Positions 2,805 to 51,067 of a DNA stretch of 64,000 nucleotides are shown piece after piece. The notes beneath the pieces were generated by a model, which was given only the letters and a program-made list of their open reading frames with translations, was not told the DNA's origin and ran no database searches. Numbering within the stretch: position 1 is the first letter of the stretch; each line of letters starts with the position of its first letter. The translations under genes were made by a program, and so were the position numbers. This DNA comes from an uncultured Actinomycetes bacterium (GTDB lineage Bacteria; Actinomycetota; Thermoleophilia; Gaiellales; JAICJC01): NCBI GenBank assembly GCA_963729195.1, contig CAVSNF010000025.1, positions 192,287 through 256,286 of the forward strand, given 5' to 3'.

Positions 2805-4288
2805 GCCTTCCCCCATCCCCCACCGCCGGGCGTACGAATCTCCAGCACGTCCCCGGCGCGGAGATCGAGTGAGACCTTGGCCGGCAGCCGCGCGCCGTTC
2901 AGCAGGTTGCGCCCGGCCGCCCCTGCTTCACCACCGGCCATTCCCTGCGGGGCGGTGCCGGCGGCGTTCGGTCATGAGGCCGAGTGTGCAATCAGAGAGC
3001 ACGCGGTACACCCTAACCACCCCGTCACCTCCGTGGTGATATCCGCCACCCCCGGAGCGGCGGCGCAACGCGTAGCGCTCGATTCGCAGCGGGTACTCCC
3101 GCTCCAGCGCCTCGATCGGCGTATTCAGGGTGTTCGACATGGCCACGTGCACGGCCGAGGGCCCATCGCCGGTGGGCGAGGCCCCCTGACCGCCGCCCAG
3201 CGTCTCGTAGTACGTGAACCCGGACGTGCCGAAGGTGACGTTGTTCATGGTGCCCTGGCCGTCGGCGCGGGTGTCGATCAGCTCCCCGAACGCGCGCGTG
3301 ACCACGTCCACGATCCGGCTGGAGGTCTCGGTGTTGCCGGCCACCACGCCTGCCGGCGGTCGCGCGTTCACCAGCGAGCCCACCGGCGCGGTCACGGTCA
3401 CCGGCTCGAAGGCGCCGCCCGAGGCGGGGATGTCGGGATCGCACAGCGCCCGCACAACGAAGTACACCGCCGAGCGGGTGACGGTGATCGGGCAGTTGAC
3501 GTTTCCGGGCTGCTGGTCGGCGGTGCCGGTGAAGTCGACCGAGACGCGGTCGCCGCGGATCTCGACGGTCGCGTGGATGGGGATGTCGGCGCGGGTGATG
3601 CCGTCGCCCTCGATCACGTCGTGGGCGCTGCCGCGGCCGTCGGGGAGGCCGGCCAGCGCGGCACGGATGCGCCGCTCGGAGTAGCGGTAGAGCTCGTCCA
3701 TGCCCCGCTCGAGCTGGGCGTGACCGTGCCGCTCGGCCAGCTCGCGCAGCCGCCGTGCCCCCAGCTCCTGAGAGGCGATCTGGGCGCGCAGATCGGCCAG
3801 CCGCTGATGCGGCCGGCGCATGTTTGCCACCAGCACTCTCAGCAGGTCGTCGGTGAGCCGCACCGGCGGGATCACCACTCCCTCCTGGATCAGCTCGCGC
3901 GCGCCGGCCGGCATGCTGGCCGGCTGCATCCCGCCGACGTCGGCGTGGTGGGCACGGGAGACGACGAAGCCGAGGTCGTCGACCCGCGAGACGAGCGTGA
4001 TATCGGGCAGGTGGGTGCCGCCGGTGTAGGGGTCGTTGAGGATGAAGTGCTCGCCCGGGCGGGGGTCGAGCGCGCGGCACGCGGCCACGGCGTCGGGCAT
4101 CGCGCCCAGGTGCACCGGGATGTGCTCGGCCTGGGCGACCATGCGCCCGCCGGCGTCGAAGATGGCCGTGGAGCAGTCGCGGCGCTCCTTGATGTTGGCC
4201 GAGTGGGCTGCGCGCACCAGCGCCGCGCCCATCTCCTCGGCCACGCCCGAGAGCGCCGCCGACATCACTCGCAGGGTGGCCGGATCAG

Positions 4289-4292
<4 letters not shown>
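2801..4292 (-). CDS. Hydantoinase B/oxoprolinase family protein (HyuB-like), frame broken near the C-terminus
   Basis: ORF 2928..4349 from internal ATG 4292 ([22 protein letters not shown]...HIPVHLGAM). The last ~45 aa ([22 protein letters not shown]...[13 protein letters not shown]) lie in another frame down to TGA 2801..2803. Frames join at the GGGG run 2949..2952. Confidence 0.8.
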
Positions 4293-6137
<1,845 letters not shown>

Positions 6138-6179
6138 GCGAGAGAGTATGGTGGACGGCCCGTGGGTGACGAGCAGGCA

Positions 6180-7388
6180 ATGGTTGTGATCTTTGTGGCG
6201 GCCACATTGGCGCCACTGCTGGGTGGCCTGGTGTTCGGTCCCAGGGTGCCGCCGGTGGTGATCGAGATCGTGATCGGCATCCTGATCGGGCCGAAGGTGC
6301 TCGACTTGGCCGACGAGACCACCGTGGTCGCCTTCTTCTCGACCCTGGGCCTCTCGTTTCTGTTCTTCATGGCCGGCATGGAGATCGACTTCGAGCGGAT
6401 TCAGGGATCGCCGGTGACGCTGGCGCTGGTGACGTGGTTTACGTCGATCGCGATCGGCTTATCACTGGGCACGATCCTCCAAGGGGCGGGTGTGGTGCTG
6501 TCGTCGCTGCTGGTCGGGGTGGCGCTGACCACCACGGCGCTGGGGACGTTGATGCCGATCCTGCGTGATAACGACGAGCTGTCGACGCCGTTCGGAGGGC
6601 TGGTGATGGGAGCGGGCGCGGTGGGCGAGTTCGGGCCGATCGTGCTCGTCTCGACACTGCTCTCCTCCGGCAGCCTGGCCTCGTCGGTGGGTGCGATCCT
6701 GACGTTCGCCGCGCTTGCGATGGCGATCGGGGTAACGGCCCTGAAGCTGCACCCGCCCAACGTGATGCGCGTGGTCGGCCGCTCGATGCATACCAGCGCG
6801 CAGCTGCCGATCCGGCTGACGGTGTGCCTGATCGTGGTGCTGGTGTTCCTGACCGCGCACGTCGGCCTGGATGCGGTGCTGGGAGCGTTCGCCGCGGGTG
6901 TGATCGTGTCGCTGGCGACCGGTAAAGACCGGGAGGAGCTCGATCACAAGCTGGATGCGATCGCCTTCGGGGTGTTCATCCCGATCTTCTTCGTGGTCAC
7001 CGGAGTCACGTTCAACCTGACGGCGCTCGGCAGCGCACCGGCGCTGTGGCGGCTGCCGCTGTTCCTGGCCATGTTCTGGGTCGCCCGCGGCCTGCCGGCC
7101 CTCTTCTACTACCGCCAGGCGCTGCCCAAGCTGGCCGATCGGATCGACTTTTCGCTCTTGACCGCGACCCAGCTGCCGCTGGTGGTCGCGATCGCAGAGA
7201 TCGGCCTGGCCACACATCGGATGCGCCCGTATACGGCCTCGGCGCTGATCGGCGCCGGCATGATCAGCGTGCTGCTGTTTCCGATGGTGGCCGAGGGTCG
7301 CCGCCGCAGCCGCCGCGGCGCCGGTTCTAGCGGTCCCGGGGACGCCGCCGCAGCGGTCGCCGCCGACTCACCTGCTTCGACGGCTTAG
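6180..7388 (+). CDS. Cation:proton antiporter (Na+/H+ exchanger, CPA-type)
   Basis: Internal ATG 6180 of ORF 5640..7388. MVVIFVAATLAPLLGG... is polytopic with 10 or more hydrophobic segments. The upstream part of the ORF is antisense to hyuA. Confidence 0.75.
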   Translation: MVVIFVAATLAPLLGGLVFGPRVPPVVIEIVIGILIGPKVLDLADETTVVAFFSTLGLSFLFFMAGMEIDFERIQGSPVTLALVTWFTSIAIGLSLGTILQGAGVVLSSLLVGVALTTTALGTLMPILRDNDELSTPFGGLVMGAGAVGEFGPIVLVSTLLSSGSLASSVGAILTFAALAMAIGVTALKLHPPNVMRVVGRSMHTSAQLPIRLTVCLIVVLVFLTAHVGLDAVLGAFAAGVIVSLATGKDREELDHKLDAIAFGVFIPIFFVVTGVTFNLTALGSAPALWRLPLFLAMFWVARGLPALFYYRQALPKLADRIDFSLLTATQLPLVVAIAEIGLATHRMRPYTASALIGAGMISVLLFPMVAEGRRRSRRGAGSSGPGDAAAAVAADSPASTA

Positions 7389-8658
7389 ACGACGCCGGTC
7401 GCCGCTGCATGGGTACGCGCACCCGCGGCAGGGCGGCCCGCCTGGCCGGCCTGCTGTGGGCAACATTGACCGGCTCCGGCATGTCGCGCATCGTCGGCAG
7501 CAGGATCACGGCGCCGACCAGCGTGATGCCGGCCGCGACCAGGTAGGTGCCCTGGGCGCCGAAGACGGCGATCAGCGGCGCGCCCAGCGCGAAGGATGCC
7601 GCCATCGCGCCCAGGACGACGGCGTCGAGAGCTGCGGATACGCGTGACTGAATGATGTTGGGAGTACGGCGCTGGATGATGTTCTGCGCGGCCACGGTGC
7701 CCAGCGAGTCGAACAGGCCGGCGATCATCATGCCGACCAGCACCGGCCAGAACACCGGCGCCAGGCCGACCACGGCGAATCCGCCCGCGATCGCGACGCT
7801 GCCGACGACGACGGCCGGCTGCTCGAACCGGCGCAGCACGTAGCGGCCCGCCAAGAGCGCGCCGATCACGCCGCCGCCGTCCCAGGCAACGGCGATCAGG
7901 CCGTACCCGAGCGACCCCACATGGAACTGGTTTGCGAGCGTCACCTCGGCCACGATCACGGGGCCGATACCGACCATCACCAGCGCCCAGGCGACCGTCA
8001 GCCGGCGCATGTAGCGGTCAGCCATCAGCTGCCGGTAGCCGTCCAGGCGACCGCCCACCGACTCGTCGCGATTGTGCGACTGCAGCCGCTCGTGCACGCC
8101 GATCATGAGCGCGGATGCGGCCAGCATGATCACGCCCGAGACGACGAACACGCCGGCCGGGCTGATCACGGCCAACAGCATGCCGCCGATACCCGGGCCG
8201 AGCATGAACCCAGCGCTCTTGAAGACGCCCAGAAGGCTATTGGCGCGGCCCAGGTCGTCCTCGGCCACGAGGTTTGGCACAGCACCCTGAACAGCCGCTC
8301 CCAGGGCTCCCTGGGTGGCCGCGGCAGCGACCATCATGGCGATCACCAGATCGACCAGGCCGACGCCGACCAGGCCGGCACAGGCGAAGAACGCGGCACC
8401 GGCGAATCCGGCCGAGATCATGACCACCAGGCGGCGGTCGTGGCGATCGCCCATGTGCCCGGTCCACGGCGAAACCGCCGTCGACACTCCGAAGATCGCG
8501 AGCATCGCGGCCGACACCCACCATGAGGAGTGGGTGGACTCGAACACAACCCAGATCAGTGCCGTGGTGGCCGCTCCGCGGCCGGCCAGCGACAGCCCCT
8601 GGCTGATGGCCAGGCGGCGGACTGCGGGGCTGATTGGGGTGTTCAATGTGGTGGTCAT
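7327..8658 (-). CDS. MFS transporter
   Basis: ORF 7327..8712, preferred ATG 8658 (MTTTLNTP...). About 12 TM segments and a basic C-terminal tail. Its 3' end overlaps the antiporter 3' end by 62 nt. Confidence 0.75.
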   Translation of the reverse strand: MTTTLNTPISPAVRRLAISQGLSLAGRGAATTALIWVVFESTHSSWWVSAAMLAIFGVSTAVSPWTGHMGDRHDRRLVVMISAGFAGAAFFACAGLVGVGLVDLVIAMMVAAAATQGALGAAVQGAVPNLVAEDDLGRANSLLGVFKSAGFMLGPGIGGMLLAVISPAGVFVVSGVIMLAASALMIGVHERLQSHNRDESVGGRLDGYRQLMADRYMRRLTVAWALVMVGIGPVIVAEVTLANQFHVGSLGYGLIAVAWDGGGVIGALLAGRYVLRRFEQPAVVVGSVAIAGGFAVVGLAPVFWPVLVGMMIAGLFDSLGTVAAQNIIQRRTPNIIQSRVSAALDAVVLGAMAASFALGAPLIAVFGAQGTYLVAAGITLVGAVILLPTMRDMPEPVNVAHSRPARRAALPRVRVPMQRRPASSKPSKQVSRRRPLRRRPRDR

Positions 8659-8829
8659 GCCAATTTTCTGTTTCGGGCAGGGGTTTACAGCGCCCCCTGT
8701 GATGATCGGCAAAGGCCGCTATCTGTATTAACGCCCACCGGGTCGCCCGGATTCCCGGTTCAGATCAGCGTAGCGCGGCCTCTGCCACCTGCGCAAAGGG
8801 GAGGCGCGGGTGCCCAAATGCGGCCGGCC

Positions 8830-9715
8830 TCACGCCTCCGGGTCGGCGACAGACACCGTGAAATGGTCAAACCGCGCTTCCAGCAGCGGGCCGTCGAGCA
8901 CGTCGCGACCCTTCACCAGTGGCACCTCTCCGGCCGCGACCGCACCGATCCCCTGGGCGAACTCGCGCAGCAGCCCCGGCTCGGCCACCGGGCGCGGATA
9001 GTGGTGGAAGAGGGCCACGTCGACCGCATCCTCCAGCTCGGCCAGCCGCTCGGCCGACTGCGCCAGCGCCGTCGATATCGGAGTCGGGGAAATGCGCATA
9101 GATCGGCCCGGCGTTGACGGTGTCTCCGCCGAACAGGACGCCCGCGTGCTCGTCCAGAAGACAGATACCGTCAGGACTATGCCCGGGTGCGAAGATGACA
9201 GTGAGCTCCCGGCCGCCGAGGTCGACGCGGTCGCCGTCCACCAGCGTGCGGGTGGCGGTCGTGCCGGGGATCGCCCAGCCGGCGCGATCGAATCCCGGAG
9301 GCAGCGGCCGGGGGTCGCTCTCGGGAGTGAGCAGCCAGAAGTACTCCCAGTCAAGCCGGCGGTAGGTCTCGGCCGCGGCCAGCTGACGATCGACGTAGCC
9401 GAGATAGGCCTGGAGTAGCTCACTCGGCACCGGCTGCTCGATCAGCGGTGCTCCCAGCTCATGGATCGCGATCTCCGAAAACTCGTGATTGCCGCCAATG
9501 TGATCGAAGTGGGAGTGGGTGTTGACCACCATCACCGGCAGCGGCGTCAGGCTCTCGGCAACCGGTCGGATCGGAAGCACCCCCATACCCGTGTCCAGGA
9601 TCGCCGCGCGCTCGTCGCCGGCCACCAGCCAGGTGTACACGTGCTGCGGCTCGGCGATCAGCCACACCCCGGGGGCTACCGGCCGCGTGTAGAACCAGTC
9701 GCCGGCGGCGCTCAC
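8830..9715 (-). CDS. MBL-fold metallo-hydrolase, frame broken once
   Basis: ORF 8867..9760 carries the HxHxDH motif (VVNTHSHFDHIGGN). The C-terminus continues in ORF 8830..9423 (...STALAQSAERLAELEDAVDVALFHHYPRPV...). Frames join at the GGGG run 9085..9088. GTG 9715 forms a GTGA overlap with the upstream stop. Confidence 0.75.
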
Positions 9716-17655: not shown

Positions 17656-18321
17656 ATGACATACCTGATCGTATTTCTCGTGGTTCCTCTGGTGTTGGGT
17701 CTGGGTGCGCAGGCGTGGGTCAAGCGCTCGTTCGCAGACGGCTCCAAGATCCAGGCCTCGTCCGGCATGACCGGTGCCCAGGTGAGCCAGCGCATGCTGG
17801 ACGCAAGCGGCATCCATGACGTGTCGGTGGAGGGCATCTCCGGATCACTGAGCGACCACTATGACCCTCGTTCCAAGACCATGCGACTGTCCGAGCCGGT
17901 CGGAGGCTCAAACTCCGTGGCGGCTGTGGCCGTCGCGGCGCACGAGACCGGCCACGCGATCCAGGACGCCCATCACGAAGCGGGCTTCCGCTTCCGCGGC
18001 GCGCTGGTGCCGGCCGTCGGATTCGCCTCCAACGCCTGGATGCCCCTGGTGTTCCTGGGGTTCATCTTCCAGACGACAGGGTTCTTCCTGATCGGCGCGA
18101 TCCTGTTTGCCGCGATCGTGCTGTTCCAGCTGGTGACCCTGCCGGTGGAGTTCGGCGCCAGCAAGAAGGCGATGGGCCTGCTCACCTCACAGGGCGTGAT
18201 CTCCCAGCAGCAGGTGCCGGTCGCCCGCAAGGTGCTGACCGCTGCCGCGATGACCTACGTGGTCGCCGCGCTGATCTCGATCATGCAGTTCGCCTGGCTC
18301 GTGGCTCAGAGCCGCAGGTAG
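17656..18321 (+). CDS. Membrane zinc metallopeptidase (YugP-like, HExxH)
   Basis: ORF 17626..18321, ATG 17656 (MTYLIVFLVV...). Carries HETGHAIQ plus C-terminal TM segments. Confidence 0.75.
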   Translation: MTYLIVFLVVPLVLGLGAQAWVKRSFADGSKIQASSGMTGAQVSQRMLDASGIHDVSVEGISGSLSDHYDPRSKTMRLSEPVGGSNSVAAVAVAAHETGHAIQDAHHEAGFRFRGALVPAVGFASNAWMPLVFLGFIFQTTGFFLIGAILFAAIVLFQLVTLPVEFGASKKAMGLLTSQGVISQQQVPVARKVLTAAAMTYVVAALISIMQFAWLVAQSRR

Positions 18322-18322
18322 C

Positions 18323-19264
18323 TTGACGCTTCCAATCTCACCGCCGCTCGCGCCCGCACTTGCGCGAGCGGCGGCCGAGCTTCCGGCCGGCGACGGCTGG
18401 CTGTTTGAGCGCAAGTGGGACGGGTTTCGCACGATCGTCTTCGTCGACGGCGACGAGGTGTTCGTGCAGTCGCGAAACGGCAAGCCGATGAGCCGCTACT
18501 TCCCCGAGCTGCGGTTCCCGCTGGGCCGCTACGTGCTGGACGGCGAGCTGGTGATCCGAGACGACGACGGCGAGGAGATGTTCGAGGCGCTGCAGGAGCG
18601 CATCCACCCGGCCAAGTCGCGAGTCGACATGCTGGCCGAGAAGACGCCCGCGACCTTCATCGCCTTCGATCTGCTCGCCGACGGCGACGAGGCGCTGCTG
18701 GACACCCCCTTCTCCCAGCGACGGTCGCGGCTGGAGGCGCTCGCCCCCGAGGGCATCGAGCTGACGCCGCTGGGTGACCGCGACGCCGCCGAGGGCTGGC
18801 TGCAGACCGCCGAGGGTGCGATGGCCAAGCGCGCCGACGCGCTGTATGTGCCGGGCAAGCGCGACGGCATGTTCAAGATCAAGCGGGTGCGCACGATCGA
18901 CACCGTGATCGTGGGCTGGCGGCCGGGCAAGGCCGAGGGCACCGTCGGCTCGCTGATCCTGGGCCTGTACGACCCGGAGGGCGAGCTGCGGGTGGTCGGC
19001 CACACGTCGGCCTTCAGCGCCAAGCGGGCGCGCGAGCTGGTGGATGAGCTGGCCGAATACGAGAGTGGCGAGAGCGGCACCGCGGCCCCCAGCCGCTGGA
19101 CTGCCGACCGCGATCTGGAGTGGCGATCGCTTCGCCCCGAGCTGGTGGTGGAGGTCAGCTTCGACCACAAGAGCGGTCACAGGATCCGCCACGGCGCAAA
19201 GCTCCTACGCTTCCGCACAGACCGTGAGCCGGCAAGCTGCCACATCTCCCAGCTCGAAAGCTGA
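18323..19264 (+). CDS. ATP-dependent DNA ligase (adenylation + OB domains only)
   Basis: ORF 18323..19264. Motif I is ERKWDGFR (KxDG). Also has AMAKRADALYVPGKR and a C-terminal OB-like region. The TTG start is 1 nt after the peptidase stop. Confidence 0.85.
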   Translation: MTLPISPPLAPALARAAAELPAGDGWLFERKWDGFRTIVFVDGDEVFVQSRNGKPMSRYFPELRFPLGRYVLDGELVIRDDDGEEMFEALQERIHPAKSRVDMLAEKTPATFIAFDLLADGDEALLDTPFSQRRSRLEALAPEGIELTPLGDRDAAEGWLQTAEGAMAKRADALYVPGKRDGMFKIKRVRTIDTVIVGWRPGKAEGTVGSLILGLYDPEGELRVVGHTSAFSAKRARELVDELAEYESGESGTAAPSRWTADRDLEWRSLRPELVVEVSFDHKSGHRIRHGAKLLRFRTDREPASCHISQLES

Positions 19265-19283
19265 TTCCGCCTTCGCCGTAACC

Positions 19284-19959
19284 GTGGCGGCGGTGTCGCA
19301 TCGCTACGGCGACTTGGAGGTGCTGCGCGACGTCTCGCTGGACGTCGCGCCCGGTGAGGTGGTGGGAATCGTCGGCCCCAGCGGATGCGGCAAGTCGACG
19401 CTCTTGAGCCTGATCGCCGGGCTCGAGCCGCCCACCCAGGGCACGGTGACCGCAGCCGACGGCGCCCTGATGCCCCAGCGCGACCTGGTGATGCCGTGGC
19501 GAGACGCGCTCGGAAACGCCTCGATCGCGCTCGAGAACGCCGGGGTCGGCCGGTCGCAGGCGCGGGCCCGGGCGCGCGAGCTGTTCGCGCGCTTTGATCT
19601 CGACCAGTTCGAGCGGGCGCGCAGCTGGGAGCTCTCCGGCGGGATGCGACAGCGGGTGGCGTTCATCCGCACGCTGCTGGCCGAAAAGCCGCTGCTCGCT
19701 GCTGGATGAGCCGTTCGCCTCACTCGATGCGATCACCCGGATCGAGCTGCAGGACTGGCTGGTGGAGGCGCTGGCGCAGGAGCCGCGGACGGTGGTGATG
19801 GTCTCGCACGACATCGAGGAGGCGCTGGTGGTGTGCGACCGCGTGATCGTGCTCTCGGCCCGCCCCGGCCGCCGGGTGATGGAGACGCCCGGCCGGATGA
19901 CGCGCGACTCGCCCGAGCTGGGAGCCGCCCGCGCCCGGGTCTTGGAGGCGCTGCGATGA
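19284..19959 (+). CDS. ABC transporter ATP-binding protein (nitrate/sulfonate/taurine type; ThiZ-like), frame broken once
   Basis: Walker A GPSGCGKST and signature LSGGMRQR are in ORF 19044..19709. Walker B LLLDEPFASLDA is in ORF 19594..19959. Frames join near 19698. GTG 19284 lies 20 nt after the ligase stop. Confidence 0.8.
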
Positions 19960-20701
19960 GGCGGTTCGGCTGGGTGATCGTGCTGATCGCGGTGTTTGCG
20001 CTGTGGCAGGCGTGGGTGGATCTGCGAGGCGTCCCCGACTACCTGCTTGCCCGCGCCCACCGACGTGGCCACGACGCTGTGGGACGAGCGCTCGAGCCTC
20101 TTCTCCGACGCGGTGCACACGTTCGCAGAGATGCTGGCGGGCTTTGCCGTGGCGATCGTCTCGGGGCTGGCAGTCGCGACGCTGATGCATCGCTGGCAGA
20201 CGCTTCGCCGCGCGCTCTATCCGCTCTTGACCGCGACCCAGAGCATCCCGCTGGTGGCGCTGGCGCCGCTGCTGGTCGTCTACCTCGGCTTCGGGCTGGC
20301 ACCGAAGCTGGTGATCATCGCGCTGGTGTGTTTCTTTCCGATCACGGTGGGTGCGGTGGACGGGTTCGAGGGAGTCGATCCCGAGTACCGCCGGATGATG
20401 CGCACCCTGCATGCCTCCGACGTCGGCCATCTTTCGCCGGGTCGAGTTCCCCGCGGCGCTGCCGTCGATCTTCTCCGGCGCGCGGGTGGCGGCCTCCTAC
20501 ACCGCCATCGCCGCGCTCTTTGCCGAGTTCGTGGGCTCCTCCGCCGGCCTCGGCTTCACCATCCGCCAGGCCGACGACCAGTTCGACACCGCCCTGATCG
20601 GGGCCGCAGTGCTGCTCTTGGCGCTGCTCGCGCTGATCCTCTTCTGGGGGGTCGGCCTGGTGCAGCGGGTGGTCGCGCCCTGGTCGCGCCAGCCGCGGTA
20701 G
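19956..20701 (+). CDS. ABC transporter permease (BPD_transp_1; ThiX-like), frame broken twice
   Basis: Three frames are involved: ATG 19956 MRRFGWVIVLIAVFALWQAW, then 19996-frame ...LPAPTDVATTLWDE...PLLVVYLGFG..., then 20411-frame ...AIFRRVEFPAALPSIFSG... Frames join near 20049 and 20425. ATGA overlap with the ATPase. Confidence 0.75.
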
Positions 20702-20714
20702 GGTTCGCGCGTCC

Positions 20715-21902
20715 CTACGCGCGCATCATCGCTGCGGGCTCGACCCGGGTCGCGCGGATTGCGGGGAGGCCGGCAGCGAGCATCGCAGCTGCAAGCGAAA
20801 CTGCTGCGCCGACCATTGCAGCGGTCACGGGGTATGTGGGGACGCTCGCAGGCAGCTGAACGATCTGGCCTGCGACGAAGAGGCTGTAGAGGAGGTAGCT
20901 CGTCGCCACCGCGACGGCGACGGCGGTCACGCCGATGATCGCCGATTCGAGCAGCATCAGCGTTGCGATTCCGGCTTTCGTGGCGCCAAGTGCACGCCTG
21001 AGCGTCAGCTCCTCGGAGCGTTCGCGGACCGTCGCAAACCCGATGTTCAGGATACCGAGCACGGCGATCGCAAGCATGAGCACTGAGATCGTCTCGGTGC
21101 CGGTCTTGACCTTGTCGACCAGGTCGGCGACCGCAGCACCGCCGTCGCTTCGAGCCACGCTCGGGGAATACCGGCCGGTCAGTCCGGTGAGGGTGGAGCC
21201 GTCGCGGGCCGCACGTGTGATTCCGGCCAGATCATGTTCCTCGCCATGCACCCTGAGGGCCGCCGAGTTGTCCACCCGCCGCCCGAGTACCTCGGGTATC
21301 CGCAGTCTCGGGTCGGCGAGGTCTGCAAACGCGTCCGGCGAGGCCGCATCGTCGATCACGCCGACAACTCGAAAGACCTGTTCGGGGGTGCTCTCTCCCC
21401 ACCAGCAGCGGATGAACAAGGGGTGTCCGAGCGCGTCGTCAGCCGCGCGGTTGAGGACCAGCGCAGGCACCGCGTCCATCGCGTCGGCGGTCCGAAGCCA
21501 TCGTCCGGAAGTAACGTCACGCGTCACCACTCCCGAGCCCGCGATGAGGCTCATGCCCGCCGCCACCGGGCTACCGCCGGATTCGATCGTCACCCCACCC
21601 GACTGATAGACGATGTCGACGGCCGCACCGGGCGGAGCGAGGTGTTGGACGCGCGCGATCGCCCCCTCAGGGCTCTGTTCCAGGAGCTGATCGGGGTCGA
21701 TCGCCACCTCGACCGTCGCGACCAGCCCACCGTTCAGGTCGAAGCTCTGGCGCTGGTAATCGCCGAACAGCTGGCTGCCCACAGTCGCCACGAGTATGGA
21801 AACCGTCGCCACGACGATGCTTACCCCGGTGAGCGCCGACCGCCATGGACGTGCCCGGACGCCCTGCAGCGCCGCGCGTAAGACAAAAAGCGAAGCCATC
21901 AC
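20715..21902 (-). CDS. MacB/FtsX-type ABC permease with a large extracytoplasmic domain
   Basis: ORF 20715..21902. TM1, then a ~230-aa ectodomain, then three C-terminal TM segments with an FtsX-type motif (LTLRRALGATKAGI). Confidence 0.8.
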   Translation of the reverse strand: MMASLFVLRAALQGVRARPWRSALTGVSIVVATVSILVATVGSQLFGDYQRQSFDLNGGLVATVEVAIDPDQLLEQSPEGAIARVQHLAPPGAAVDIVYQSGGVTIESGGSPVAAGMSLIAGSGVVTRDVTSGRWLRTADAMDAVPALVLNRAADDALGHPLFIRCWWGESTPEQVFRVVGVIDDAASPDAFADLADPRLRIPEVLGRRVDNSAALRVHGEEHDLAGITRAARDGSTLTGLTGRYSPSVARSDGGAAVADLVDKVKTGTETISVLMLAIAVLGILNIGFATVRERSEELTLRRALGATKAGIATLMLLESAIIGVTAVAVAVATSYLLYSLFVAGQIVQLPASVPTYPVTAAMVGAAVSLAAAMLAAGLPAIRATRVEPAAMMRA

Positions 21903-22582
21903 AAGGCTTCTCGCACCGATCCGCGCTCGATATGGATGCAGGTCGAGAGCGCCTCTGCGACCTGGGCGTCGTGGGTGGCGACGATCACCGTGGCGCCCGC
22001 GGCCACGCTCGCCGAAACCAGCAGGCCCACCACGTGCTCAGCCGTCTCCTCGTCGAGCGCACCCGACGGCTCGTCTGCCAGAAGGTAGCGGGGTCGCTTA
22101 ACAAGCGCACGAGCGATCGCGACCCGCTGCTGCTCCCCGCCCGAGAGCGCTGATGGCAGATGTGCTGCGCGGTGGTCGAGCCCAACTTCGGTGAGGATTG
22201 CGCCCACGGTTGAGCGGCGGGTGCGCCACCCCCATGACGTCCCCGCCTGATCGAGACCAAGCTCGACGTTCTCGAAGGCCGTTAGGTGTGAGACGAGATA
22301 GAAGCGCTGGAAAACGAAGCCAAACGTCTGCCCGCGCAGGCGACTCGCGCCGCGATCGGTGAGCCCGGCGACGTCCGAGCCATCGACACGATAGAGGCCC
22401 CCATCGGGCCGCTCGAGCAGTCCAAGGATGCTCAAAAGCGTGCTCTTGCCCGAGCCCGAGCGACCCATCACAGCGTAGGTACAGCCGTCCTCGAATCTCG
22501 CCGTGACTCCGCGCAGAACGGTGACCGGAGTGCCGCTCGGGCCCGTGAATGACTTCTCCAAACCAACCAGCTCGAGCACCAC
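21899..22582 (-). CDS. MacB/LolD-type ABC ATP-binding protein
   Basis: ORF 21899..22582. Walker A GRSGSGKST, signature LSGGEQQRVAIARAL, Walker B YLLADEPSGALD. Confidence 0.9.
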   Translation of the reverse strand: MVLELVGLEKSFTGPSGTPVTVLRGVTARFEDGCTYAVMGRSGSGKSTLLSILGLLERPDGGLYRVDGSDVAGLTDRGASRLRGQTFGFVFQRFYLVSHLTAFENVELGLDQAGTSWGWRTRRSTVGAILTEVGLDHRAAHLPSALSGGEQQRVAIARALVKRPRYLLADEPSGALDEETAEHVVGLLVSASVAAGATVIVATHDAQVAEALSTCIHIERGSVREAL

Positions 22583-23241
22583 TTACTCGCCTTCGGGCGA
22601 ATTGAATCCCGGCAACACCGGGGCCGGCAGCTGCACCAATTCCCCACTATGCAGGCCCGAGGTGATCTCGATATTGCTACCGTCTGTCGCCCCAAGGCCA
22701 ACCGTGACAATCGACGTCCCACCACCCGCGCCAACCACCGTCACTTGGCCCTTCTGAACGCTCCCCGCCACCGCTTCTATGGGTAAAACCAAAACGCCGA
22801 CGCGACCGCGAAGCGTGACCGCGACCGTGCCAGGCTGACCGACTACCGCCGCGCTACCCCGCGGCAGGGTGCAGCGCACCACGCCCCGGGGCGGGCGGCG
22901 CGACCCGCCGGCCCGGGCACTTGCAGCTCGACACACGCCTGCGGCCCGGGACCGCCTTGCAGCTGGGCCTGCACCGCGTGCACACCGTGCGCGAACCGGT
23001 ACATCGACGCCGGACTAACATTGGCCACCACGACCGGGCGCCCGTGATCCACCGACGCAACCACGCCCGGGAACGAGATGGTCGGGGTGATCGCGCCCCG
23101 CTCAACTCGCACGCGTTGCGGCGAGGCACCACCGTATCCCGCAACGCTGGTCGAACTGTGACCGGTGAAGACCCACACCGAGGCAGCAGCCACGCCCATC
23201 AGCGCGACAGTGAGGAGCACATAGAGGATCCTCACCGCCAA
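22583..23241 (-). CDS. Membrane-anchored periplasmic adaptor (HlyD/MacA-like, short, no coiled-coil hairpin), frame broken once
   Basis: N-terminus in ORF 22843..23241 (TM ILYVLLTVALMGVAAASVWVF). C-terminus in ORF 22583..22936 (...GTVAVTLRGRVGVLVLPIEAV...ITSGLHSGELV). Frames join near 22900. The family call is by pattern only. Confidence 0.55.
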
Positions 23242-23274
23242 ATCCGATCATGTGTGGCAGCTGCGCGGCCCTTG

Positions 23275-23757
23275 CTAGCCAACGCAGTTGGCCTTGGCAT
23301 AACGGAGGAACGGTTGGTCGTTTCCGTGGGCGAGAGCTCTGATGTAAGCGCCGATCCGATCCCGTTCGAGAACATCCGCGAAATCGGGACTCGTGAGCGT
23401 CTTGAGAGCCAACGCAGCTCGGGCCGGGTGCGATGAGTGATCCGCCACCCAGATGCGACCCCACTCACACTCCCAGCGACCGTCGACGTGCGCGATTGCC
23501 GATTCCGACGCCGCGTTGGTCGCGTCGATGCTCGGATTAAACCTGAAGGCTGGTGGAGATCCCGGCCAGGTAAGCCGACTCGACTCGCCCCGCCACGCAT
23601 CCGCATACTTCTGAGCGGGCGACCTGGCATCCCAAAACAGAAGCGACATGCCGGCACGATGCACACCCACCACCATGAGCCCGCACAAGGCCCCCACCAC
23701 AATGGCGAGCAGCACAATCACCGATCGCCGGACGCCGCCACCTCGAGCAGCGCCCAC
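23275..23757 (-). CDS. Hypothetical single-pass membrane protein with a Trp-rich ectodomain
   Basis: ORF 23275..23805. GTG 23757 lies 2 nt after the upstream TGA. Basic N-terminus followed by TM VIVLLAIVVGALCGLMVVGV. Third-codon G/C is visibly lower than in neighbouring genes. No family recognised. Confidence 0.5.
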   Translation of the reverse strand: MGAARGGGVRRSVIVLLAIVVGALCGLMVVGVHRAGMSLLFWDARSPAQKYADAWRGESSRLTWPGSPPAFRFNPSIDATNAASESAIAHVDGRWECEWGRIWVADHSSHPARAALALKTLTSPDFADVLERDRIGAYIRALAHGNDQPFLRYAKANCVG

Positions 23758-23758
23758 A

Positions 23759-24184
23759 TCATTTCGTGACATTGCCAATGTCCCCGCCGAACTTCGTGTC
23801 ACCAAAGCTCGGCACGCCCGCGTCGGTCATCGCCTCGACCTTGACCGTAGTGGTAGCCAGAACGTTGCTGGCAAGCACTATCGTCTTGGGTAGCGCAGCG
23901 CAGGAGGCCACGGTGGCCGCGTGCGATACCGTTCCTCGCTTTTGAAACAAGAGTCGCAGGTACAAATGCCTGGTCGCACCGCAATCGATGTTGTTGCGGA
24001 GCGTGAACCGGACATCACCGGTCGCCTGGATCGTGCAAGTGCCAGACCCACAGTTGTTCGTGTGCCAGACGTTGGCATTGTTGTCGACGTCACCCGACAG
24101 TGAACGCAGCGCTCCCCACCCGGTTCCAGCAGCCGAAACCAGCATCAACGCCGTAATCCCAGTCACCCAAAGACACCTTCGCAT
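23759..24184 (-). CDS. Hypothetical secreted protein (Sec signal peptide, 4 Cys, Asn/Thr-rich, beta-rich)
   Basis: ORF 23759..24184. Signal-like MRRCLWVTGITALMLVSAAGTGWGA. The mature part contains NNCGSGTC, IDCGATR and VASCAAL. Codon usage is atypical. No family recognised. Confidence 0.5.
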   Translation of the reverse strand: MRRCLWVTGITALMLVSAAGTGWGALRSLSGDVDNNANVWHTNNCGSGTCTIQATGDVRFTLRNNIDCGATRHLYLRLLFQKRGTVSHAATVASCAALPKTIVLASNVLATTTVKVEAMTDAGVPSFGDTKFGGDIGNVTK

Positions 24185-24403
24185 TGCTCCAAAACCCTCC
24201 GAGTATTGTTTTGAGTAGCTGATCGGTGGGAAAAGCTACCTCGAAGATGTCATAAGCGCAAGTTTCAGTAGATCACATTAAACTATTCGCAACAAAGCAG
24301 GTTCAGCGTCATGGCTCTGACTGAACACGCCGCTCGGCGAGCAGCACGGAGTTCGTATGGGGAACGTGTCGCGCTAGCCGCGGTAGGGTTCGTCCATAAC
24401 CGT

Positions 24404-24491
24404 TTGCCGGGGAGTCCCACCGGGGCTGAGAGGGCGCACATGCGCCGACCCGCGAACCTGATCTGGGTAATGCCAGCGAAGGGATGCAGCG
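24404..24491 (+). promoter_or_regulatory. TPP (THI-box) riboswitch
   Basis: GGGGAGTCCCACCGGGGCTGAGAGGGCGCACATGCGCCGACCCGCGAACCTGATCTGGGTAATGCCAGCGAAGGGA matches the conserved CUGAGA...ACCUGAUCUGGnUAAUnCCAGCGnAGGGA core. It ends at the SD/ATG of the downstream gene. Confidence 0.9.
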
Positions 24492-25478
24492 ATGCCACAC
24501 CGTGTTCTCGTCCTCCTCCTCGTGGGACTCGCCGCGCTCGCGGCGGGCTGCGGAGGCTCCTCCAGCAGCTCAACCACAAACAACCTGAACCCGGGCCCTG
24601 CCAACGTCAAGCTGGCGCTCGACTGGTACCCCAACCCCGACCATGTCGGCATCTTTGCGGGCATCGAGCGCGGTGACTTCGCCGGACGCGGCATGCAGCT
24701 GACGCTGGTGGCGCCGTCGGATGTGTCTGACCCGATCAAGCTGGTGGCCGCCAAGCGGGTCGATCTGGGCGTGTCGTACGAGCCGGAGGTGTTCTTCGCC
24801 GCCGAGAAGCACATCCCGGTGGTCGCGGTGGCGGCCCTGGTGCCGACTGCGCTCAACTCGATCATCGCCCGGACCGACCGCGGCATCCACCAGATCACCG
24901 ACCTGCGCGGCAAGACGATCGGCGTGGACGGAAGCGCATCCACCACCGCCTACGTCAAGACGATGCTCCAGACGTCAGGCGTCCCGATCGACTCGGTGCA
25001 CCTGGTGACGGTGGGATTCAACCTGGTGCCGGCGCTGCTCTCGGGCAGGGTCGATGCGATCGCCGGCGGCTTCCAAAACATCGAGGGGATCGACATCCGC
25101 GCGCACGGGGTGGCGACCACCGTGTTTCCCGTCGACCACTACGGCGTGCCCAGCTACGACGAGCTGGTGATCATCGCCAATCGCGACCGGATGCAGTCAG
25201 ACGCCAATTATCGCGACGAGGTGCGGGCATTCGTGACCGGATTGACCACGGCCACCAGCTGGGCGCGAAATCATCCCGCCGCGGCGGTTGCGATCATGCG
25301 CAAACAGAGTTCTCGTGACTACCGCGGCCAGATCGCCAAAAGCGTGCCGGCGACCCTCAAGCTACTGCAGACCTCGCGGCTTGACCCGGCGGCCTGGAGG
25401 GCGTTTGGCACGTGGATGTGGAGCCACGGCCTGCTGGATGTGAAGCCCGACGGAGCGGCGCTCGTAACACAGCCATAA
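24492..25478 (+). CDS. NMT1/THI5-type ABC substrate-binding lipoprotein (ThiY-like, thiamine-precursor binding)
   Basis: ORF 24492..25478. Lipobox LAALAAGCGG. LALDWYPNPDHVGIF is typical of the NMT1/THI5 fold. Sits directly downstream of the TPP riboswitch. Confidence 0.8.
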   Translation: MPHRVLVLLLVGLAALAAGCGGSSSSSTTNNLNPGPANVKLALDWYPNPDHVGIFAGIERGDFAGRGMQLTLVAPSDVSDPIKLVAAKRVDLGVSYEPEVFFAAEKHIPVVAVAALVPTALNSIIARTDRGIHQITDLRGKTIGVDGSASTTAYVKTMLQTSGVPIDSVHLVTVGFNLVPALLSGRVDAIAGGFQNIEGIDIRAHGVATTVFPVDHYGVPSYDELVIIANRDRMQSDANYRDEVRAFVTGLTTATSWARNHPAAAVAIMRKQSSRDYRGQIAKSVPATLKLLQTSRLDPAAWRAFGTWMWSHGLLDVKPDGAALVTQP

Positions 25479-25487
25479 GATTCGGGT

Positions 25488-26042
25488 ATGCCCGATTCTC
25501 CATCGCTCAAGGGCCACCTGCTGATCGCGGCCCCGTCCCTGCTTGACCCCAACTTTCACCGGTCGGTGGTGCTGATCTTGGAGCACACCGCCGAGGGGGC
25601 GCTGGGCGTGGTCTTGAACCGCCCCAGCGGGGTGTCGGCGGCCGACGCGGTGCCCGACCTGTCCGAGGTTGTGGAGGAGCACGACGAGGTGTTTGTGGGC
25701 GGCCCGGTGCAGCCCCAGGCGGTGATCGCGCTGGCCGAGTACAGCGAGCCGCTGAACGACGATTCGAGCCTGGTGGGGCCGATCGCTCCGATCGACATGG
25801 GCGAGGATATCGAGGAGATGCTCGACGGCGTCGCCCGGGTGCGGCTGTTTGCGGGCTATGCGGGCTGGAGCGAGGGCCAGCTGGATGGAGAGCTCGACGA
25901 GGAGGCCTGGTTCACCGAGCCGGCGCTACCCGGCGACGTCTTCTCCGACGACAGCGCCACCCTCTGGAACCGGGTGCTGGCCCGAAAGGGCGCCCGCTAC
26001 CGGTTGGTGGCCTCGATGCCCGAGGATCCCAGCCTCAACTGA
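25488..26042 (+). CDS. YqgE/AlgH family protein (UPF0301)
   Basis: ORF 25488..26042: LKGHLLIAAPSLLDPNFHRSVVLILEHTAEGALGVVLNRP...VFVGGPV...LFAGYAGWSEGQLDGEL. Confidence 0.85.
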   Translation: MPDSPSLKGHLLIAAPSLLDPNFHRSVVLILEHTAEGALGVVLNRPSGVSAADAVPDLSEVVEEHDEVFVGGPVQPQAVIALAEYSEPLNDDSSLVGPIAPIDMGEDIEEMLDGVARVRLFAGYAGWSEGQLDGELDEEAWFTEPALPGDVFSDDSATLWNRVLARKGARYRLVASMPEDPSLN

Positions 26043-26718
26043 TGTGCTCGAAGTAGCGGATCGCGGCCAGGCCGATGGTGCGCGTTGACCACAGGTTGTA
26101 GGTGGCGGCGATACCGATGCCGAGGACAGGGATCTCGCGGCCGATGATCACGTGCGCCCGGCGCCGGGCCAGCCGCGATGCGACCTGCGTGGCCAGCTTG
26201 CGGTTGACGCGGGCCGCCAGCACGTCGATCGACGCCGAATCGAACTCCGATAGCGGAATCTTCTCGCCGGCCAGGCTGACCGTGCCCGACCGCCGGCCCA
26301 GCTTGACCACGCCGGCGTCCACGCCGAGTGCCATCAGCACGTCCAACCTGCGGGCCTCGTGGTCGGACATCGGCCGGTCGTACAGGTGGGCGATCACCAG
26401 CACCAGCTCGATCTGAGCTGCGGTCAGGTAGGCCAGGTCGCCGAGTGCGGCGGTCACCTCGGCGGTGGTACCCGGCCCGGGAATGACCGCGGGGATCGCG
26501 CTGACCGCGCCCGAGCCGGCCAGGTGAAACGCCTTTCGGCCCATCGCCACGCGGGCGAGCTTTGCCCGGCCGAGGTGTGGGTGTTTGCGACGGAGCTTCT
26601 CGGCCGACCGCTCGATGGCGGGGCCGCGGCGGTTGATCACAGTGCGCAGAGCGGTCTCGGTGGCGCGCGAAAGCGACGCCGCCAGCCGATCGACCACCAC
26701 ATCCAGAGAGCGGCGCAT
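26035..26718 (-). CDS. Hypothetical protein (possibly EcsC-like)
   Basis: ORF 26035..26766. ATG 26718 is preferred because it avoids overlap with the divergent aminotransferase start. Function unclear. Confidence 0.4.
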   Translation of the reverse strand: MRRSLDVVVDRLAASLSRATETALRTVINRRGPAIERSAEKLRRKHPHLGRAKLARVAMGRKAFHLAGSGAVSAIPAVIPGPGTTAEVTAALGDLAYLTAAQIELVLVIAHLYDRPMSDHEARRLDVLMALGVDAGVVKLGRRSGTVSLAGEKIPLSEFDSASIDVLAARVNRKLATQVASRLARRRAHVIIGREIPVLGIGIAATYNLWSTRTIGLAAIRYFEHIS

Positions 26719-30943: not shown

Positions 30944-31017
30944 TCGGGGCGCCGAGATTTGAACTCGGGACCTCACCGACCCGAACGGTGCGCGCTACCA
31001 GGCTGCGCCACGCCCCG
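30944..31017 (-). tRNA. tRNA-Pro (anticodon CGG)
   Basis: Hand-folded cloverleaf: CGGGGCG-TG-GCGC-AGCCTGGTA-GCGC-G-CACCG-TTCGGGT-CGGTG-AGGTC-CCGAG-TTCAAAT-CTCGG-CGCCCCG-A. 74 nt, CCA not encoded. Confidence 0.9.
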
Positions 31018-41160: not shown

Positions 41161-41529
41161 TCAAGGCTGGTGGTCGACGAACTCCAAGTACACCATCGGG
41201 GCGGCGTCGCCCTGACGGGGGCCAAGCTTGACGATGCGGGTGTAGCCGCCGGGCCGCTCCGTGAACCGGGGAGCGACCTGGTGGAACAGGTTGTGAACCG
41301 CGTCCTTGGAACGCAGGAAGGCGACCGCCTGACGCTGGGCCTGCACGTCGGTTGCGTCCTTGCGCGCCAGCGTGATCAGCTTCTCGGCGATCGGCCGCAG
41401 CTCCTTGGCCTTGGCCTCGGTGGTGCGAATCCGGCCATGCTCGAACAAGGCGCCCGCCATGTTCGAGAAGAGCGCCTTGCGGTGCGAGGCGTCGCGGCCC
41501 AGCTTCCGTCCTTTGCGCTGATGCCTCAC
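41161..41529 (-). CDS. rplQ: 50S ribosomal protein L17
   Basis: ORF track: [24 protein letters not shown]... Confidence 0.95.
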
Positions 41530-42473
41530 TCAGACCCCTTCAAGTTGAGCCCGTGAGTGGCCAGCGTCTCCTTCACCTCTTCGATCGACTTCTTACCGAA
41601 GTTGGGGATGGCGGCCAGCTCGGCCTCGCTCTTGGCCAGCAGGTCGCCGATCGTCTCGATGCCGACGCGCTTGAGGCAGTTGTAGCTGCGCACACCCAGC
41701 TCGAGCTCCTCGATCAGGATGTTCTCCATCCCATGGGCGCTGGGAGCAGCCGCCTCGGCGCCGGTCGTCTCCGGCCGCAAGGCCAGATCGGCAGCGTCGA
41801 TATCGGTGAAGATCGACAGGTACTTGATCAGCAGCTCAGCCGCATCCTTGACCGCGTCCTTGGGCGTCATCGAGCCGTCGGTGGTGATCTGCAGCTTGAG
41901 CTTGTCGAAGTCGGTGCGCTGACCGACGCGAGCCGGGTCAACGTCGTACTGGACACGCCGAACAGGCGAGAAGATCGAGTCGACCGGGATCACGCCGATG
42001 GTGGTCTCGGGGCCCTTGTTGCCCTCGGCCGGCACGTAGCCGCGGCCGCGGGCGATGGTCAGCGTCATCTCGAACCGAGCACCCTCGGCCAGATGGCAGA
42101 TGACCAGGTCGGGATTGAGGATCTCGAGATCGGCCGGGGCCTCGATGTCAGAGGCCTTGACCGTGCCGGGACCGTCCTTCTGCACCTGCACCTCGACCTC
42201 GCCCGACTCGCCGTGCAGGCGGCAGATGAGGCCCTTGAGGTTGAGGATGACATCGATCACGTCCTCGCGCACGCCGGGCACCGACGTGAACTCGTGGGCG
42301 ACGCCTTCGATCTTGACCGACGTGACGGCGGCCCCCTCAAGTGACGACAGGAGCACCCGCCTCAGGCTATTGCCGAAGGTGTAGCCGAAGCCGCGATCAA
42401 GCGGCTCGACGACGAAGGTGCCGATCGTCTGATCAGCATCTTCGGAGGTGATCTTGGGAATGAAATCAAGCAT
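41526..42473 (-). CDS. rpoA: DNA-directed RNA polymerase subunit alpha
   Basis: ORF track, 315 aa: ...[30 protein letters not shown]... Confidence 0.95.
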
Positions 42474-42539
42474 GTGTGCGGACTCGCTTCTGTCGGAACA
42501 CGCGCCCCCGGGCCGATCCCGGGCGGCGTGAATATCGGA

Positions 42540-43160
42540 TCACTTGCTGTAGTACTCGACGATCAGCTGCTCCTGCACCGGAGTGTCGATGTCGACCCGG
42601 TCCGGCAGTCGCAGCACCACGCCGGTGAGATTGTCGTGATCGGCCTGAAGCCACGGGGCAACCGACGCCGTCAGGTCGGTGGCGTCGGTCACGACGCTCT
42701 TGGCGGGAGACCCCACCCGCAGACTGATCACGTCTTCCGGTGCCACCTGGTAGGAGGGAATGTTGACCTTCTTGCCGTTGACCACGAAATGGTTATGCCG
42801 CACCAGCTGGCGGGCCTGGGTGCGCGACGCCGCAAAGCCCAGCCGGTAGACGACGTTGTCGAGCCGCATCTCAAGCATCCGCAGGAAGTTCTCGCCGGTG
42901 ATCCCGCTGCGCTTGGAAGACTTCTCGTAGTAGGTGCGAAACTGGCTCTCGAGCACACCGTAGTAGCGGCGCATCTTCTGCTTCTCGCGCAGCTGCAAGA
43001 GGTACTCGGACTGCTTGATGCGGCCGCGGCCGTGCTCACCGGGCGGATAGGCCCGGCGCTCGATCGCGCACTTCTCGGTGAGGCAGCGCTCACCCTTCAA
43101 GAACAGCTTCATGTTCTCGCGCCGGCACTGCTTGCACTTGGGGGCGATCATCCGGGCCAT
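42540..43160 (-). CDS. rpsD: 30S ribosomal protein S4
   Basis: Internal ATG 43160 of ORF 42540..43421: [26 protein letters not shown]... One-nt overlap (TAATG) with rpsK. Confidence 0.95.
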
Positions 43161-43567
43161 TAGACGCGCCGTCGCTTTCGCTGTCGCACGCCGTTGTGTG
43201 CCTGAGGGGTGACGTCCTTGACACCGAGAATCTCCAGCCCCGCCGCCTGCAGCGAGCGGATCGCCGTCTCGCGCCCCGAACCGGGCCCCTTGACGAACAC
43301 CTCGACCTTCTGCAGACCGTGCTCCATGCCCTCGCGCGCAGCCGCGTCGGCGGTCACCTGAGCGGCGAACGGCGTCGACTTGCGCGAGCCCTTGAAGCCC
43401 ACCGCGCCGGCGCTCTTCCACACGATCACTCCGCCGTCCTTATCGGTCAGCGCGACAAGGGTGTTGTTGAACGACGTCTTGATGTGCGCCTGGCCGATGG
43501 CGATGTTTTTGCGGGCCTTGCGGCGTACCCGTCCTCGGGTGCCGCCTCTGCGTGGTGCTGGAGGCAT
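43160..43567 (-). CDS. rpsK: 30S ribosomal protein S11
   Basis: ORF track: ...[21 protein letters not shown]... Confidence 0.95.
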
Positions 43568-51066: not shown

Positions 51067-51067
51067 T

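Follow-up and report, generated by a model that had tools for sequence, protein, structure and literature searches.

A strain-variable MacAB-like transporter cassette with a candidate secreted client in an uncultured Gaiellales bacterium

In a 64,000-nucleotide stretch of DNA from an uncultured actinobacterium of the Gaiellales, referred to here as the window, positions 20715-24184 hold five genes that encode two small exported proteins, a MacA-like adaptor, an ATP-binding cassette (ABC) ATPase and a permease. The cassette is best read, at a probability of about 0.4, as a strain-variable and horizontally mobile islet of 3.7 kb that would specify a four-component MacAB-like (type VII ABC) machine for extrusion or self-protection, together with a variable secreted client. 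An earlier note on this DNA, made from the sequence alone, had described five co-directional minus-strand genes with junctions from a 4-nt overlap to a 33-nt gap, and the coordinates and junctions agree with this. It overlooked a frameshift in the adaptor gene and the fact that the whole block is an insertion that varies between strains.

All five genes lie on the minus strand, in the same direction, within DNA of high guanine-plus-cytosine (GC) content (about 0.65-0.70 across the window). The first gene, g1 (23759-24184), encodes a small protein of 141 amino acids with a Sec signal and occupies what turns out to be a variable position. The second, g2 (23275-23772), encodes an extracytoplasmic protein with a single transmembrane (TM) anchor, of 165 amino acids if translation starts at the ATG at 23772 or 160 if it starts at the GTG at 23757. 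The in-frame ATG, which creates a 14-nt overlap with g1 and is the start used by gene callers on related contigs, is more likely than the GTG first proposed. A 33-nt gap separates g2 from g3 (22583-23241), the short TM-anchored MacA-like adaptor, which is broken by a 1-nt deletion near 22886; g3 abuts g4 (21899-22582, a 227-residue ABC ATPase of the MacB/LolD/FtsE kind), with TAA followed directly by GTG, and g4 overlaps by 4 nt with g5 (20715-21902), a MacB/FtsX-type permease of 395 residues with four TM segments. A scan for promoters and terminators found no consensus promoter and was uninformative. The arrangement is more than chance, as the same gene order is seen in distant genomes and the ratio of non-synonymous to synonymous divergence (dN/dS) is 0.17-0.49 in all five genes.

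The motor and its adaptor

The ATPase g4 matches ABC_tran of Pfam (E 3.8e-28) and its best matches in NCBIfam are the nucleotide-binding domain of MacB (4.5e-55), FtsE (6.4e-52) and LolD (6.5e-52), in keeping with the MacB/LolD-type ATPase that had been proposed. Every equivalog cut-off is missed, with the FtsE model scoring 176 against a cut-off of 264.9, and thus g4 is not an orthologue of any named system. The FtsX_actino model likewise scores 20 against 250.

The permease g5 matches FtsX of Pfam at residues 272-389 (E 3.4e-14), and by hydropathy TM1 covers about residues 20-47 and TM2-4 about 267-384, leaving an ectodomain of about 220 residues between TM1 and TM2, as would be expected of the FtsX/MacB permease with a large ectodomain that was first described. 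A profile of the permease clade can be aligned from end to end with the MacB structure 5LIL (residues 5-385, ectodomain included, E 1.5e-25) and also with 5GKO and 5NIK, the second-best match in the PDB being Spr0695 of Streptococcus pneumoniae (5XU1, E 5e-23). Taken alone the g5 of the window has no match to PF12704 (MacB_PCD); its orthologue in locus L014 passes that model with 28.8 bits against a cut-off of 27. Relatives of g5 are very few, one at 92% identity and the next a protein of Streptomyces sp. SID13031 at 32%, and Pfam recognises no family in the cassette beyond ABC_tran and FtsX.

The adaptor g3 has an N-terminal TM segment at residues 1-27 by hydropathy, and its C-terminal part matches TIGR01730 (RND_mfp) of NCBIfam (E 1.2e-5). 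A profile of the adaptor clade finds the MacA structures 3FPP (E 1.9e-5) and 5NIK_D, with E values of 2-3e-5 over the membrane-proximal region; the similarity to MacA is weak, there is no Pfam match at E ≤ 0.1, and PADLOC gave no match for g3. The protein fits the plan of a MacA-like adaptor, a membrane anchor with beta-barrel and membrane-proximal domains. The intact orthologue of locus L002 has about 195 extracytoplasmic residues, and judged by size there would be no room for a coiled-coil hairpin of 60 or more residues. The anchor and the match to MacA therefore stand from the first description of a short MacA-like adaptor, although the single open reading frame (ORF) that it assumed does not. 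Together, the profile matches of permease and adaptor to MacB and MacA, the MacB_PCD match of the L014 orthologue and the match to TIGR01730 indicate a MacAB-like system in which ATPase and permease are separate and the adaptor is very short, which bears out the assignment of the cassette to the MacB type.

The accessory protein and the variable first gene

The order of small Sec protein, small lipoprotein, adaptor, ATPase and permease is also found in Streptomyces sp. SID13031, S. tardus, Streptomyces sp. XM4193 and the metagenome loci L019 and L014. In SID13031 a signal-peptide protein of 138 residues and a lipoprotein of 150 come before a lipoprotein adaptor of 264, which shares 41% identity with the unbroken Gaiellales adaptor; ATPase and permease follow. 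A scan of genome contigs with the permease sequence alone gave no match, a scan with an alignment gave only the three Streptomyces loci and one Anaerolineaceae locus, and a scan of metagenomes with the adaptor alignment gave 31 further loci. As cultured Streptomyces carry the homologous five-gene set, genetics and biochemistry of the system are feasible. Directly upstream of the SID13031 cassette, on the same strand, lies a gene for a 949-residue LuxR-family protein with AAA_16 and GerE domains (L007, 2201-5050), which is a candidate regulator.

The protein g2 has one TM segment, six tryptophans and two cysteines in its ectodomain, as had been described. When the g2 of the window lineage was compared by hhalign with the small lipoproteins of Streptomyces and of metagenomes, homology was found with a probability of 97.1% (E 5.4e-11 over 116 columns). 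The members, of about 140-165 residues, share WP, W-x-C-x-W and LGD/GND motifs and a C-terminal cysteine, and are anchored through a lipobox in most lineages and by a TM helix in that of the Gaiellales. Besides the loci already known, a hidden Markov model (HMM) of the family has matches only in L019, L014 and L036, each time in the ORF just before the adaptor. A g2 homologue thus directly precedes the adaptor in six independent lineages, the three Streptomyces genomes included. In a neighbour-joining tree of the adaptor C-terminal domains all loci that could be scored as having a g2-like gene form one clade, which also takes in L018, a contig end without upstream sequence that is nearly identical to L019. 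The sister clade is made up of the remaining 25 loci, and no g2-like ORF is present in any frame in the 12 of these that have at least 1.3 kb of upstream sequence. From the HMM matches, the hhalign result and the restriction to one clade of the tree, g2 is, as far as sequences can tell, the dedicated partner of one clade of MacA-like adaptors.

Systems of the sister clade (L015-L017, L020-L035 and L037-L044) are common in soil and rhizosphere metagenomes and consist of three genes, in which the ATPase is accompanied by a lipoprotein adaptor of about 330-390 residues and by an FtsX permease of about 450-520, with no upstream accessory genes. Several of their permease ectodomains are rich in cysteine.

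The protein g2 founds an unnamed family of small, predicted helical proteins with two cysteines, anchored either as lipoproteins or by a TM segment. The family has no match in Pfam, NCBIfam, PADLOC or the PDB sequences. A match of one of five family members to Inhibitor_I36 (E 0.0034) was treated as chance. An AlphaFold2 model of g2 from a two-sequence alignment reached a mean predicted local distance difference test (pLDDT) score of 47. Around residues 71-95 (window 23490-23560) g2 contains a hypervariable loop, in which the alleles of the window and of L002 cannot be aligned and net indels amount to 3 nt; nearly all of it has been replaced (dN 0.8, dN/dS about 1.3), whereas the flanking parts are conserved. 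Such a loop would be compatible with a fast-evolving binding surface.

A conserved core with a variable loop in a dedicated, membrane-tethered extracytoplasmic partner is also what might be seen if the ABC motor were no transporter at all but a mechanotransmission regulator, switching the conformation of g2, g1 or both, which would then act on the cell wall or surface as EnvC, PcsB, RipC and CwlO do with FtsEX. FtsEX systems employ such partners (PMC10694151, PMC10214136) and the permease belongs to the MacB/FtsX/LolCE fold group. However, FtsEX systems have no adaptor whereas a MacA-like one is present here, neither g1 nor g2 has a hydrolase, coiled-coil activator or catalytic domain, scores fall far short of the equivalog cut-offs for FtsE and FtsX, and a core function in the wall is impossible for an islet that sibling strains lack. 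Such a regulator is very unlikely.

Of the first gene product, the signal-like hydrophobic segment at the N-terminus, the four conserved cysteines (C45, C50, C68 and C95 of the mature part) and the content of threonine (13%) and asparagine (8%) of the mature part all accord with what was said of it at the outset. A single-sequence AlphaFold2 model shows beta strands only, at low confidence (mean pLDDT 41). No family was found for g1 at E ≤ 1 in Pfam or NCBIfam, Lactococcin_972 included, nor in PADLOC or the PDB sequences, and with the same result for g2 the claim that both proteins are without a family holds. Word-indexed searches with g1 and g2 returned close relatives only. An exhaustive phmmer search with g1 against 1.84 billion representatives gave P0002 (partial, 84%), P0011 (50%) and two marginal matches, and of these only P0002 and P0011 are real relatives. 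P0011 is encoded on a short contig of another study, with a g2 homologue as the next gene downstream.

Across cassettes the first position is filled by three kinds of protein that are unrelated in sequence. Relatives of g1 occupy it in the Gaiellales lineage and in L013, a different family, 39% identical among its members, in the Streptomyces genomes and L019, and yet another small signal-peptide protein in L014; the other first-position proteins likewise have no match in Pfam, NCBIfam, PADLOC or the PDB sequences. In L036 the position is empty. Homology of g1 with the Streptomyces proteins was rejected as unproven, as BLAST found none and hhalign gave E 0.02 at a probability of 2%; a motif W-H/Y-T/S-N ... 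G/A-T-G-x-V is suggestive between the two. The refuting condition named at the outset, that genes 1 and 2 never co-occur with MacB-type genes, does not hold, given the g2 homologues next to adaptors in six lineages. As a family, g1 is not conserved across cassettes.

Residues 32-71 of g1 (window 23980-24100) carry the motif W-H-T-x-N-C-G ... T-x-x-A-x-G-x-V-x-x-T-x-R ... C-G, which is also seen in both PKD-like repeats of P0013, an otherwise unrelated metagenome protein of 348 residues that is 41% identical to g1 over 41 residues. The likeness may be a weak hint of an immunoglobulin-like beta-sandwich. As a lead to a PKD-like family it was dropped, the library-wide match to P0013 having an E of 1e-4 and the repeat of P0013 being merely a sub-threshold PKD_4. 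In L036, the region upstream of the four-gene cassette (441-5168) encodes a large AAA-ATPase protein whose C-terminal region is TIR-like, together with a VapBC-like pair (PIN toxin and antitoxin) on the opposite strand, and this neighbourhood looks like a defence island.

The mixed occupancy of the first position bears on whether the cassette has a client of its own. It could be that g2 to g5 form a generic efflux or 'keep-away' pump that detoxifies the envelope of external antimicrobial peptides or lipid-II binders, with g2 as a substrate-capture or assembly subunit and the first genes as unrelated passengers or surface proteins that share the promoter. The trio of adaptor, ATPase and permease is widespread in soil actinobacterial metagenomes without a first or second gene, L036 has g2 and the pump and no first gene, the Gram-positive MacAB-like Spr0693-0695 give resistance to antibiotics and antimicrobial peptides (PMC5768738, PMC5985334), and a strain-variable islet fits a resistance function too. 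Against this, a small Sec-signal protein of similar size comes first in five of the six lineages, tightly linked and on the same strand, which is unlikely for random passengers, and in the window lineage g1 and g2 overlap by those 14 nt. A pure detoxification pump is possible, although rather doubtful.

The insertion in the thi locus and the state of this copy

The cassette and its leader form a single insertion of 3,685 bp, bounded by a 25-nt direct repeat whose copies are spaced 3,685 nt apart. The left copy (20683-20707, GTCGCGCCAGCCGCGGTAGGGTTCG) holds the last codons and the stop of a thiX-like permease gene; the right copy (24368-24392) is identical at 24 of the 25 bases and lies 6 nt before a thiamine pyrophosphate (TPP) riboswitch. 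Between the start of g1 and the right repeat, on the minus strand and within the insertion, is a leader of 183 nt (24185-24367) that is presumed to be the promoter region. The insert consists of the five genes and this leader, with no recombinase and no kinase or regulator.

Neither islet nor leader is present in the sibling contigs L045 (180 kb) and L048 (101 kb), each of which has a LigC-like ligase at least 90% identical to that of the window, followed by a thiZ-like ATPase, a thiX-like permease, an NMT1/ThiY-like binding protein and DUF179. Window positions 18000-20706 align with 4671-7374 of L048 and positions 24368-26500 with 7351-9481, at 93-95% identity; 24 nt of L048 serve both alignments, and the repeat is present as a single copy at the empty sites of L048 and L045. 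The GC content of third codon positions is 0.70-0.79 in the cassette as against 0.83-0.95 in the flanking genes. Given the bounds of the insertion, the empty sibling sites, the content of the insert and its lower third-position GC, the five genes are inherited, gained and lost as one unit and are accessory. They are an example of a recombinase-free accessory islet in the Gaiellales, an abundant uncultured soil lineage. A search of plasmids with a g2-family protein and the adaptor gave no match.

In comparison with the L002 allele dN/dS is 0.24 for g1, 0.49 for g2, 0.31 and 0.17 for the two halves of g3, 0.21 for g4 and 0.26 for g5, and judged by these ratios all five genes are under purifying selection. 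Synonymous divergence is higher in g1 and g2 (0.30-0.39) than in g4 and g5 (0.15-0.17), which could reflect recombination at the accessory end of the islet.

The adaptor gene of the window is divided between two ORFs in different frames, 22843-23241 (132 residues, the N-terminal part) and 22583-22936 (117 residues, the C-terminal part). Base-by-base comparison attributes the split to a single missing T at about 22886, where the window reads CCCCGG-GGCG and L002 reads CCCCGGTGGCG; no other indel breaks the frame in the 3.4-kb coding block between the two, which are 90% identical at the DNA level. The adaptor is an intact single ORF of 212-219 residues in L002 (219), L003, L004 and L008, and is split in the same way, into 125 and 99 residues, in a Logan contig assembled separately from the reads of run ERR11592903. 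Programmed -1 frameshifting was considered and rejected, there being no canonical slippery heptamer, and relatives simply carry one base more. The cassette copy in the window may thus be inactive unless the missing base is an error of assembly. The related ENA contigs bear names of the form contig_N, and among them single-base indels are numerous, with 19-60 gaps over 3.6-3.8 kb in L001 and L008, and the naming and the indels suggest error-prone long-read assemblies. With both halves of g3 under purifying selection relative to L002, the break is either very recent or an artefact.

On the plus strand beyond the right repeat, the TPP riboswitch (24398-24502), which scores 66 bits where the gathering score is 54.3, immediately precedes the NMT1/ThiY-like gene (24492-25478). 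In the siblings it does not head the thiZ-thiX-thiY cluster but is found within it, after thiX and ahead of thiY. The thiZ-like ATPase and thiX-like permease genes on the other side of the cassette (19044-20701, plus strand) are frame-broken in the window and are called as intact in L045 and L048. In the thiZ-like gene Walker A and Walker B fall in different frames, with the break at about 19600-19700, and the thiX-like gene, when set against L001 and L008, has one extra base (+1) at 20046 and another at 20421. There are three frame breaks in all, two of them located as window-specific +1 bases, and they represent either real pseudogenes or assembly errors. In L006 (ERZ25039574 contig_22696, 6044-6568) a deletion of about 1.5 kb has taken out the adaptor, so that roughly the first 124 residues of g2 run on into the final 32 of the ATPase; this chimera is protein P0004.

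It might be assumed from such lesions that this genome retains only a decaying remnant of the cassette, acquired horizontally, disused, heading for loss and without a current function. The adaptor frameshift, its recurrence in the separately assembled contig, the fusion in L006, the absence of the islet from sibling genomes and the window-specific frameshifts in the neighbouring thiZ and thiX would all fit. However, purifying selection on both adaptor halves (0.17-0.31) and on all the other genes places any inactivation very late, if it is not an artefact, the single-base indels of the contig_N contigs point to assembly error, and intact copies exist in four other samples. Decay is therefore distinctly unlikely.

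Further from the islet, the window holds genes for ribosomal proteins, SecY, Adk, RpoA, EF-Tu and EF-G at 41500-60600 and a tRNA at 30944-31017, all on the minus strand. At 90% identity the EF-Tu clusters with a protein assigned to a Gaiellales bacterium, which is indicative of a host in that order of the Thermoleophilia (Actinomycetota).

Proposed working and comparison with known systems

MacB-type proteins have no substrate path through the membrane and work on its outer face, by mechanotransmission (PMC5985334, PMC4887032). MacAB-TolC expels the Sec-delivered, disulfide-bonded STII (PMC5985334), YknWXYZ guards against the Sec-dependent SDP, probably from outside the membrane (PMC4887032, PMC5985334), and AS-48EFGH guards against an endogenous bacteriocin (PMC5985334). 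By analogy with these three, the g4 ATPase and the four-TM g5 permease with its probably MacB-type ectodomain would be the motor, g3 the short membrane-anchored MacA-like adaptor, probably too small for a coiled-coil hairpin, and g2 a dedicated membrane-anchored, helical and probably disulfide-containing extracytoplasmic subunit specific to one adaptor clade. Mechanotransmission driven by ATP on the membrane's outer face would then expel a Sec-delivered molecule or keep it off the bilayer. The likeliest client would be g1 itself, a small Sec-exported four-cysteine protein of predicted beta structure that varies from lineage to lineage in the manner of cargo or toxin genes. Such a module would release a secreted competition factor, protect its producer from the factor, or both. 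We infer the client role and any toxicity of g1, the direction of transport and the part of g2 in substrate capture or assembly.

Several points weigh against this scheme. Toxicity of g1 and its role as a substrate are unsupported, g1 has no similarity to Lactococcin_972, SDP or any bacteriocin family, and its dN/dS of 0.24 within the lineage is that of ordinary purifying rather than diversifying selection. The pump can do without the first gene, as L036 has none, and the low scores of both AlphaFold2 models (41 for g1 and 47 for g2) lend no fold support to any role. The frameshifted adaptor of the window and the 1.5-kb deletion of L006 suggest that the system is dispensable. With only about seven lineages known, the statistics of co-occurrence are thin.

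The scheme could be carried further. It is conceivable, although unlikely, that g2 represents a new class of extracytoplasmic accessory subunit, from which the hairpin-less MacAB pumps of actinobacteria without an outer membrane derive their substrate specificity, that the first genes are new polymorphic Sec-dependent protein toxins, and that the islet is a self-contained, horizontally exchanged module of toxin and pump immunity which inserts by a 25-nt att-like duplication without a recombinase of its own.

What purpose MacA-like adaptors and pumps of the MacB type serve in bacteria that lack an outer membrane has been explicitly named as an open question (PMC5985334). The cassette offers a compact natural test case for it, with a minimal adaptor, a dedicated new partner and, in most versions, a candidate client in cis, and it adds two unnamed protein families.

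Of the known systems YknWXYZ of Bacillus subtilis and B. amyloliquefaciens is the one that the earlier note took the cassette to mirror. It has a small accessory membrane protein, a membrane-anchored adaptor, a separate ATPase and a four-TM MacB-type permease in the same order, in a host without an established outer membrane, and for it, too, action from outside the cytoplasmic membrane has been proposed (PMC4887032, PMC5985334). The likeness is positional only. YknW is a membrane protein of the Yip1 family (PMC4887032), whereas g2 is a single-anchor protein with a helical ectodomain and has no Yip1 similarity; its one TM segment, the lack of a Pfam or NCBIfam match and the lipoprotein nature of its homologues place the cassette outside the YknWXYZ type. 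YknX, moreover, is a full-size MacA-like adaptor, unlike g3 with its 195 or so extracytoplasmic residues, and the toxin gene sdpC lies outside the ykn operon, whereas here a secreted-protein gene heads the operon.

MacAB-TolC of Gram-negative bacteria, which exports STII and confers resistance to macrolides and peptides, is matched by the permease over the full length of MacB and by the adaptor, whose membrane-proximal domain is nearest to MacA, and the candidate client g1 is likewise a small, Sec-exported protein that contains cysteine. Here, however, ATPase and permease are separate polypeptides, g2 is an extra subunit, there is no TolC partner or sign of an outer-membrane duct, and the adaptor is probably too short for the alpha-hairpin that docks with TolC. 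AS-48EFGH of Enterococcus faecalis and Spr0693-0694-0695 of S. pneumoniae are closer in being Gram-positive combinations of an adaptor with a MacB-type ABC transporter, which protect the cell from an endogenous bacteriocin of its own or make it resistant to antimicrobial peptides (PMC5985334, PMC5768738). They differ in having no g2-like subunit, in their substrates, which are a cyclic peptide or external drugs, and in their full-size adaptors with hairpins.

In clusters of the lactococcin 972 type a Sec-dependent beta-sandwich bacteriocin is followed by an ABC ATPase and a membrane protein for immunity or export. These are not known to contain an adaptor or a g2-like gene. As in the cassette, a gene for a small beta protein with a Sec signal leads an operon with a MacB/LolD-like ATPase, and TIGR03608 (L_ocin_972_ABC) is among the top matches of g4 (E 2.7e-49). 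The score of 167.5 bits is however below the cut-off of 254.85, and g1 has no Lactococcin_972 match. With FtsEX and LolCDE the cassette shares a LolD/FtsE-like ATPase and a four-TM FtsX-type permease whose ectodomain is large; it departs from them in widely missing the equivalog cut-offs, in its adaptor, in matching no hydrolase activator or LolA-like carrier, and in its accessory distribution. BceAB-type modules have a ten-TM permease and a cognate two-component system, as against four TM segments and an insertion of 3,685 bp without a kinase or regulator.

By analogy, then, the cassette probably works like MacAB or a YknWXYZ-type module, although it falls outside YknWXYZ, Lcn972, FtsEX, LolCDE and BceAB as such. 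A MacAB-like envelope pump is already known; what is new here is the minimal adaptor, the new accessory-protein family, the variable secreted first gene and the recombinase-free islet that carries them.

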